NCBI RefSeq assembly: GCF_054482595.1 | Contig: NZ_CM137008.1 | Length of the DNA: 64,000 nt | Direction: 5' to 3' (one strand) | Shown: one piece after another, positions 42,245 through 44,607 of the stretch | Layout of the letters: the number at the start of each line of letters is the position of its first letter | Position numbering within the stretch: the stretch's first letter is position 1 | Translations under genes and position numbers: made by a program | Notes under the pieces: model-generated | Seen by the model: only the letters and a program-made list of their open reading frames with translations | The model's database searches: none | What the model was told of the DNA's origin: nothing

Positions 42245-43150
42245 TTCAAAGAGATGACAGACACACACTATATTGGCCGCTTCGCCCCCTCTCCTTCCGG
42301 CGAGCTTCATTTTGGTTCTCTGATTGCTGCGCTTGGCAGCTATTTGCAGGCTCACGCCCGACAAGGTCGCTGGCTGGTACGCATAGAAGATATCGACCCG
42401 CCTCGTGAAGTTCCCGGTGCCGCAGAAACTATCCTGCGCCAGCTGGAACATTACGGCCTGCACTGGGACGGCGATGTTCTCTGGCAATCGCAACGTCACG
42501 ATGCCTATCGTGAAGCACTCGCCTGGTTACATGAGCAAGGACTAAGTTATTACTGCACCTGCACGCGTGCACGTATTCAAAGCATTGGCGGTATTTACGA
42601 CGGTCATTGCCGGGAATTGCATCATGGACCAGGCAACGCCGCAGTGCGTATCCGCCAGCAGCATCCGGTCACCCAGTTTACAGACCTGCTGCGAGGCATT
42701 ATTCACGCCGACGAAAAACTGGCACGGGAAGATTTTATTATTCATCGCCGTGATGGTTTGTTTGCCTATAACCTGGCGGTGGTGGTGGATGATCACTTCC
42801 AGGGCGTGAGCGAAATTGTCCGCGGGGCAGATTTGATCGAACCGACAGTGCGGCAAATCTCGCTGTACCAGCTTTTTGGCTGGAAAGTGCCAGATTACAT
42901 TCATCTGCCGCTGGCGCTTAATCCACAAGGCGCTAAACTTTCCAAGCAGAATCATGCGCCTGCGTTGCCGAAAGGCGATCCACGCCCGGTACTAATCGCG
43001 GCACTTCAATTTCTGGGTCAGCAGGTAGAAGCACACTGGCAGGATTTCAGCGTCGAACAAATCCTTCAGTCAGCCGTCAAAAACTGGCGGCTTACCGCAG
43101 TGCCTGAGTCGGCAATTGTAAATTCAACATTCTCAAATGCGTCATGCTGA
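42224..43150 (+). CDS. gluQ: glutamyl-Q tRNA(Asp) synthetase GluQ-RS (YadB)
   Basis: 308-aa ORF with class I aaRS HIGH-like motif (ELHFGS); first ATG lies in the loop of the dksA terminator hairpin, alternative in-frame ATG at 42254. Confidence 0.88.
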
Positions 43151-43209
43151 GCTATGATTAGCCGCTATTTTTTTGTCCTGAATGATGTTTGACACTACCG
43201 AGGTGTACT

Positions 43210-44607
43210 ATTTTTACCCGAGTCGCTAATTTTTGCCGCAAGGTGCTAAGCCGCGAGGAAAGCGAGGCTGAACAGGCAGTCGCCCGTCCACAGGTGACGG
43301 TGATCCCGCGTGAGCAGCATGCTATTTCCCGCAAAGATATCAGTGAAAATGCCCTGAAGGTAATGTACAGGCTCAATAAAGCGGGATACGAAGCCTGGCT
43401 GGTTGGCGGCGGCGTGCGCGACCTGTTACTTGGCAAAAAGCCGAAAGACTTTGACGTAACCACTAACGCCACGCCTGAGCAGGTGCGCAAACTGTTCCGT
43501 AACTGCCGCCTGGTGGGTCGCCGTTTCCGTCTGGCTCATGTGATGTTTGGCCCGGAGATTATCGAAGTTGCGACCTTCCGTGGACACCACGAAGGTAACG
43601 TCAGCGACCGCACGACCTCCCAACGCGGGCAAAACGGCATGTTGCTGCGCGACAACATTTTCGGCTCCATCGAAGAAGACGCCCAGCGCCGCGATTTCAC
43701 TATCAACAGCCTGTATTACAGCGTAGCGGATTTTACCGTCCGTGATTACGTTGGCGGTATGAAGGATCTGAAGGACGGTGTTATCCGTCTGATTGGTAAC
43801 CCGGAAACGCGCTACCGTGAAGATCCGGTACGTATGCTGCGCGCGGTACGTTTTGCCGCCAAATTGGGTATGCGCATCAGCCCGGAAACCGCAGAACCGA
43901 TCCCTCGCCTCGCTACCCTGCTGAACGATATCCCACCGGCACGCCTGTTTGAAGAATCGCTTAAACTGCTACAAGCGGGCTACGGTTACGAAACCTATAA
44001 GCTGCTGTGTGAATATCATCTGTTCCAGCCACTGTTCCCGACCATTACCCGCTACTTCACGGAAAATGGCGACAGCCCGATGGAGCGGATCATTGAGCAG
44101 GTACTGAAGAACACCGATACGCGTATTCATAACGATATGCGCGTTAACCCGGCGTTTTTGTTTGCCGCCATGTTCTGGTACCCACTGCTGGAGACGGCAC
44201 AGAAGATCGCCCAGGAAAGCGGCCTGACCTATCACGACGCTTTCGCGCTGGCGATGAACGACGTGCTGGACGAAGCCTGCCGTTCACTGGCAATCCCGAA
44301 ACGCCTGACGACATTAACCCGCGATATCTGGCAGTTGCAGTTGCGTATGTCCCGACGTCAGGGTAAACGCGCATGGAAACTGCTGGAGCATCCTAAGTTC
44401 CGTGCGGCTTATGACCTGTTGGCCTTGCGAGCTGAAGTTGAGCGTAACGCTGAACTGCAGCGTCTGGTGAAATGGTGGGGTGAGTTCCAGGTTTCCGCGC
44501 CACCAGACCAAAAAGGGATGCTCAACGAGCTGGATGAAGAACCATCACCGCGTCGTCGTACTCGTCGTCCACGCAAACGCGCACCACGTCGTGAGGGTAC
44601 CGCATGA
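43210..44607 (+). CDS. pcnB: poly(A) polymerase I PcnB
   Basis: ORF contains [24 protein letters not shown]...; no in-frame ATG near the conserved N-terminus; start placed at ATT 43210 following published AUU initiation for E. coli pcnB; track ORF starts at TTG 43189. Confidence 0.85.

Follow-up and report, generated by a model that had tools for sequence, protein, structure and literature searches.

In E. coli, an AUU start is described as confirmed for two genes only, infC, which encodes IF3, and pcnB (bioRxiv 10.1101/063800; PMC5499595; PMC4447247; PMC9410913). For pcnB, the gene of poly(A) polymerase I (PAP I), Binns & Masters 2002 (Mol Microbiol 44:1287), as presented in PMC2939334, placed the start at AUU and held expression to be limited at translation initiation; according to the same account, the promoter that Liu & Parkinson had first proposed lies downstream of this AUU. 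The title of Binns & Masters, like the papers that cite it, names the start codon as what limits translation. Their AUU start is also cited in bioRxiv 10.1101/063800, PMC3561954, PMC5499595 and PMC4447247, of which PMC3561954 is inconsistent: its introduction names UUG as the start codon, its discussion AUU. Cells contain approximately 30-50 molecules of PAP I, and such a low level matters because overproduction of the enzyme polyadenylates tRNAs and kills the cells (PMC3561954). In reporter studies, AUU initiates at about 1-2% of the level of AUG.

In infC, as in pcnB, the AUU start limits translation, and it is IF3 that discriminates against AUU there (PMC9410913). The control of infC is autoregulatory because its own product is the discriminator, whereas pcnB has no known feedback through its product. 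A further parallel comes from ebpA of Enterococcus faecalis, where an ATT start attenuates expression and the start has been mis-annotated by gene callers (PMC4447247), although that gene encodes a pilus tip protein and neither it nor its host is related to pcnB and E. coli.

The closest described system is pcnB of E. coli K-12 itself (b0143), which is the same locus as the one described here, with the same synteny, an identical 75-nt start region, an ATT start and a product of 465 aa. No difference of substance was found between the two; the window, a stretch of 64,000 nucleotides from contig NZ_CM137008.1, represents another E. coli strain and is 100% identical to H9Ecoli over 43000-43500. 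The AUU start of pcnB is thus already known and annotated, and the established picture is unchanged. We hold with high confidence that translation of pcnB in the window starts at the AUU at 43210, a weak start which keeps PAP I low; the present analysis contributes the anatomy of the start, its annotation and the evolutionary signature, and the literature the use of AUU and the translational limitation. Recognising this start matters chiefly for annotation. What the comparative data add is that the module of Shine-Dalgarno (SD) sequence, four-nucleotide spacer and ATT does not vary across Enterobacteriaceae and is still found in Enterobacterales that are more distantly related, and that the initiation region of pcnB is under unusually strong constraint at the nucleotide level.

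The pcnB locus and its product

The gene order in the window is sfsA-dksA-gluQ-pcnB-folK and matches the annotation of NZ_CP029180.1, which is 100% identical over 43000-43500, a segment matched in 5424 of 5426 complete E. coli genomes. The neighbourhood gluQ-pcnB-folK is intact here, and folK (HPPK) lies 3' of pcnB in distant loci too. Two features delimit the gene:

43210 to 44607, plus strand: pcnB coding sequence, poly(A) polymerase I, 465 aa, with stop codon TGA at 44605-44607
44604 to 44607, plus strand: ATGA overlap of the pcnB stop and the folK start, the folK ATG being at 44604

The overlap suggests translational coupling of the two genes. Among related loci, 38 have ATG and 31 have GTG at the aligned position of the folK start. 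For the two other neighbours, the mechanical list of open reading frames and RefSeq place the starts differently: gluQ at ATG 42224 in the list and at the downstream ATG 42254 in RefSeq, and dksA at GTG 41714 in the list and at the downstream ATG 41732 in RefSeq.

The identity of the product is clear from profile matches. Residues 1-464 align to positions 1-468/469 of the NCBIfam equivalog model NF008634 (PcnB) with 997.1 bits against a cut-off of 702, and the alignment begins at residue 1, that is, at the ATT codon; TIGR01942 is matched with 523 bits against a cut-off of 305.65. Precomputed Pfam domains of an identical protein (P0002) are PF01743, PF12627 and PF12626, so that the PcnB domain set is complete, with the PolyA_pol head, the RNA-binding domain and the Arg-rich C-terminal domain. 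The E. coli PAP I structures, PDB 3AQK-3AQN, match the product over residues 28-442, the printed alignment with 3AQM being without mismatch; the N-terminus of PAP I is absent from these solved structures, where constructs begin at residue 28/29.

Anatomy and annotation of the start region

Read directly from 43183, the pcnB frame runs TGA TGT TTG ACA CTA CCG AGG TGT ACT ATT TTT ACC CGA GTC GCT AAT TTT TGC CGC AAG GTG. The features around the start are as follows.

43130 to 43158, plus strand: sigma-70-type promoter-like site, TTCTCA, 17 nt, TATGAT, from a consensus scan; it overlaps the end of gluQ (stop codon 43148-43150)
43182 to 43229, plus strand: out-of-frame ORF of 15 codons (ATGATG...), in frame +2, overlapping the pcnB start; ATGATG is kept in Escherichia loci only and has no SD
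43183 to 43185, plus strand: in-frame TGA stop, which closes the pcnB frame upstream, two codons 5' of TTG (sequence reading)
43189 to 43191, plus strand: in-frame TTG, seven codons 5' of ATT, a rival start (472-aa product) used historically and in some annotations
43200 to 43205, plus strand: Shine-Dalgarno sequence GAGGTG, 4 nt 5' of ATT, 6 nt from ATT when counted from the GAGG core, and 3' of TTG
43210 to 43212, plus strand: ATT (AUU) initiation codon of pcnB, the RefSeq CDS start in NZ_CP029180 and NC_000913.3, present in 81/81 loci, covered by NF008634 from residue 1 and described in the literature
43243 to 43245, plus strand: in-frame GTG at codon 12, the nearest canonical start 3' of ATT, invariant in all loci and used by some gene callers (454-aa products)
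43363 to 43365, plus strand: first in-frame ATG, at codon 52 (sequence reading), the codon being Leu in 57/80 species

The initial annotation, made from the sequence of the window, had stated that the conserved PcnB N-terminus has no in-frame ATG and that TTG at 43189 and ATT at 43210 are the upstream candidates in frame. Both statements agree with the direct reading, in which codon 52 (43363) is the first ATG in frame and both candidates are in frame with the conserved N-terminus. It had further described two out-of-frame ATGs at 43183-43188; they are indeed out of frame (frame +2), but their true position is 43182-43187, one base to the left, and 43183-43188 reads TGATGT. The in-frame TGA at 43183-43185, the Shine-Dalgarno sequence at 43200-43205 and the invariant GTG at codon 12 had been omitted. 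Taken alone, the absence of ATG over 8 codons means little, and the part that is not due to chance is conservation, with ATT in 81/81 loci and a 31-nt core, comprising the Shine-Dalgarno sequence, ATT and codons 2-6, intact in 5420/5426 complete E. coli genomes. The proposal of the initial annotation that pcnB initiates at AUU and that PAP I is thereby kept low is supported by annotation, by the NF008634 model, by the comparative data and by the literature.

The anti-SD sequence is CACCUCC, and GAGGTG is a perfect 6-nt complement of the 3' end of 16S rRNA (CACCUC), the distance of 6 nt between the GAGG core and ATT being a functional spacing. The strong GAGGUG would recruit the 30S subunit and set AUU in the P site, where the initiator tRNA would pair imperfectly, with a mismatch at the third position. 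By analogy with infC, IF3 may proofread the AUU complexes such that few binding events yield protein, and with productive initiation so rare, a cell would contain no more than a few tens of PAP I molecules.

The promoter-like site at 43130-43158 is probably pB, published as the major promoter of pcnB, an identity derived from PMC2939334. A leader of approximately 45 nt from this site would hold both TTG and ATT, and the extent of the transcript therefore does not decide between the two codons. Nearly every Enterobacteriaceae locus retains the promoter block GAGCTATGATTAGCCGC, placed between -46 and -187 nt from ATT, while the module of Shine-Dalgarno sequence and ATT stays fixed. Duplications of this upstream region were also seen: a pB-like promoter block (GTGAGCTATG...CCGCTATTTTTT) occurs in tandem 5' of pcnB in locus L084 (1081-1210), and a shorter unit, TATTTTTTTGTCC, is duplicated upstream of 1501 in Phytobacter diazotrophicus (L040).

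The out-of-frame ORF at 43182-43229 is probably not functional. A functional upstream ORF was considered and rejected, as neither this ATGATG ORF nor a GTG mini-ORF inside the Shine-Dalgarno sequence is conserved or preceded by a Shine-Dalgarno sequence of its own.

When the annotated pcnB starts were compared, a check that the initial annotation had proposed, the RefSeq CDS was found to begin at ATT 43210 in the identical genome as well as in K-12 MG1655 (NC_000913.3; b0143, NP_414685.4, 465 aa). K-12 MG1655 is 100% identical to the window over 43176-43250, and this 75-nt start region is identical in 5416/5424 E. coli genomes. Public PcnB entries are less uniform. The protein matches P0002-P0120 show at least four N-termini, with products of 465 aa beginning at ATT, 472 aa at the -7 codon, 454 aa at GTG of codon 12 and 447 aa at an ATG at codon 19, and they differ because gene callers do not consider ATT. 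Entries P0018 and P0052, of 472 aa, begin with MTLPRCT, and P0014, of 454 aa, begins at the GTG of codon 12. In Salmonella, two loci (L021 and L022, of S. enterica subsp. diarizonae and arizonae) carry at -7, 21 nt upstream of ATT, an in-frame ATG that has no Shine-Dalgarno sequence; the main RefSeq Salmonella cluster, P0013 (472 aa), begins at this ATG, and P0045 (465 aa) at ATT.

Conservation of the start and the weighing of rival codons

A single scan of species-representative genomes yielded 80 loci, all from Enterobacteriaceae and representing at least 23 named genera, with protein identities of 86-100%. ATT is invariant in 81/81 loci, as are GAGGTG and the 4-nt length of the spacer, an invariance which shows constraint at the level of sequence and does not in itself identify the codon that the ribosome uses. 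The letters of the spacer vary (TACT, CACT, TATT, CCCT, CGCT, CAAT, CACC, CAAC and others), and the region 5' of the Shine-Dalgarno sequence diverges and contains indels, with changes at all positions of the spacer and of the upstream region. Between the nearest upstream stop and ATT, 43/82 sequences have no ATG, GTG or TTG in frame. At codon -7, TTG is found in 28/82 sequences and ATG in the 2 Salmonella subspecies, the codon being absent or frame-shifted in the others. Within codons 2-11, six variant codons occur (ACT, GCA, TTC, CGT, CGA and AAA), all of them synonymous third-position changes, and there are no indels. Such synonymous-only variation is a coding signature, indicating that the stretch is translated and ruling out GTG of codon 12 as the sole start. 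This signature begins at ATT and not further 5', and the N-terminus thus lies at an in-frame ATT with no conserved canonical start upstream and with a Shine-Dalgarno sequence at functional spacing, as in an AUU-initiated gene.

More distant relatives were taken from representatives at 50% identity and from their contigs. The arrangement GAGGTG-N4-ATT persists in Enterobacterales relatives at 62-67% protein identity: GAGGTG-TCCT-ATT in L083 (62% identity, from a genome of 1.08 Mb), GAGGTG-TACC-ATT in L084 (67% identity, CP043324.1) and GAGGTG-TATT-ATT in L089 (62% identity), where it lies 5' of the called start. At 55% identity, L088 shows GAGGAT followed by ATT ATT. In L090 (54% identity, approximately 520-600), the N-terminal helix TIRRVIELCKKV follows an in-frame TAG, the only possible starts being CTG or ATC, and the start chosen by the gene caller is an ATG 30 codons downstream of the conserved helix; judged from sequence, this homologue may start at AUC. 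The picture at 45-48% identity is mixed, with called starts TTG, GTG and ATG; two of these relatives have ATT or ATC close by. The helix pattern is kept in frame with different nucleotides, reading IFTRVSNFYRH in L083, IFSQIANFCRK in L084 and ILKRITQLYRS in L089. The start regions of these distant relatives agree with the view ascribed to Binns & Masters in PMC3561954 that AUU may serve as the start of PAP I homologues in many Proteobacteria. The product of another distant homologue, P0148, begins with Leu.

Two other single starts can be weighed against AUU. If the main start were the in-frame UUG at 43189, the protein would have 472 aa, and ATT would do no more than code for an internal Ile. 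Among canonical starts TTG is a weak one; it is the first start codon past the TGA stop, and it has a history in the literature because PMC3561954 names UUG in its introduction; the 472-aa entries beginning with MTLPRCT, and the Salmonella ATG at the same position with which the main RefSeq cluster starts, also speak for it. Yet the 15 nt upstream of TTG (TGTCCTGAATGATGT) lack a purine-rich Shine-Dalgarno sequence, the sole one being 3' of TTG. A start codon at -7 is missing in 52/82 sequences, indels break the frame 5' of the Shine-Dalgarno sequence, and non-synonymous changes occur in the codons that separate TTG from ATT, codon -1 coding for T, I, P, A or N. With RefSeq K-12 and PGAP using ATT and the literature mapping initiation to AUU, a main start at UUG appears very improbable. 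We give still less credence to a start downstream, at GTG of codon 12 (43243) or ATG of codon 52 (43363), with the stretch from 43210 serving as a conserved untranslated leader. The GTG is invariant, has AAGG directly 5' and is often chosen by gene callers (454 aa, P0014), but that AAGG abuts it with no spacer. The ATG, also with AAGG upstream and discussed in PMC2939334, is the original proposal, probably that of Liu & Parkinson 1989; it is not conserved, with Leu at codon 52 in 57/80 species. An internal sigma-S promoter, pS1, and a second band with anti-PAP I (PMC2939334) have been reported and would favour a downstream start, and codons 1-9 are conserved even synonymously, as an RNA element would be. 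Against this, the variant codons of 2-11 are all synonymous and free of indels, distant homologues keep the N-terminal helix in frame with different nucleotides, and the NCBIfam model covers residue 1.

A mixture of starts is somewhat easier to accommodate, yet still unlikely in our assessment: AUU would be the main start, with minor isoforms from the UUG at -7, or from the ATG of codon 52 on a pS1 transcript in stationary-phase or ppGpp-deficient conditions. The promoter pS1 is active in vitro and, under special conditions, in vivo, two immunoreactive bands were seen in Western blots (PMC2939334), and both UUG and the ATG of codon 52 lie on known transcripts. Neither codon is conserved, however, and direct evidence for an isoform from either of them was not found. 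As the enzyme core in the crystals starts at residue 28, a product from residue 52 would also miss part of the folded enzyme. The searchable literature likewise yielded no Ribo-seq initiation map and no N-terminal peptide of PAP I. Initiation at the AUU at 43210 is the reading that we retain.

Nucleotide-level constraint around the AUU codon

The conservation extends beyond the start codon and its Shine-Dalgarno sequence, and defines one further feature:

43196 to 43236, plus strand: translation-initiation block of 41 nt, spanning the Shine-Dalgarno sequence through codon 9, with almost no nucleotide variation in 80 species, synonymous sites included

The mean third-position entropy of codons 2-9 is 0.055 bits, compared with 0.905 for the amino-acid-invariant degenerate codons of the gene, and these codons form the lowest-entropy 8-codon window of pcnB (permutation p<1e-5). 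Only 13 codons of pcnB are fully invariant, of which six are within codons 1-9, and the positions conserved in the block include four-fold degenerate sites as well as a rare CGA codon. A general trend in enterobacteria is for synonymous change to be reduced at gene starts; in the same loci, start-proximal synonymous suppression was absent in gluQ and folK and present in dksA.

On folding of 43165-43290, a 6-bp stem was predicted between 43199-43205 and 43215-43220, with AUU in the loop. A hairpin sequestering the Shine-Dalgarno sequence was rejected as the explanation, the region being less structured than its shuffles (z +1.46); the two arms do not vary and hence show no covariation, and L084 and L089 lack the stem. 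Against 1500 synonymous recodings the native sequence was not extreme: its ensemble energy is less stable than that of 89% of them, the pairing probability of the Shine-Dalgarno sequence is 0.71 compared with 0.67±0.06 for the recodings, and that of the start is 0.18 compared with 0.26. Protein coding does not explain why the block is almost frozen, and predicted RNA folding does not either.

The block may simply result from strong selection, the initiation region being adjusted to a weak codon. That it is instead a specific cis-element, either a site for an sRNA or a protein or a context for AUU decoding, adding a second regulated layer to PAP I synthesis, is a tentative suggestion that we regard as rather doubtful. 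A search of the literature returned nothing specific on control of the pcnB leader by CsrA or an sRNA, and a regulator-binding site within 43196-43236 is possible but unsupported.

Further into the gene, a promoter scan gave nothing in 43318-43356, a segment which forms a second island of synonymous conservation in pcnB (codons 37-49). This island lies between ATT and the ATG of codon 52, about where the literature puts the internal sigma-S promoter pS1, and its codons 41-43 (CGC AAA GAT) are fully invariant.
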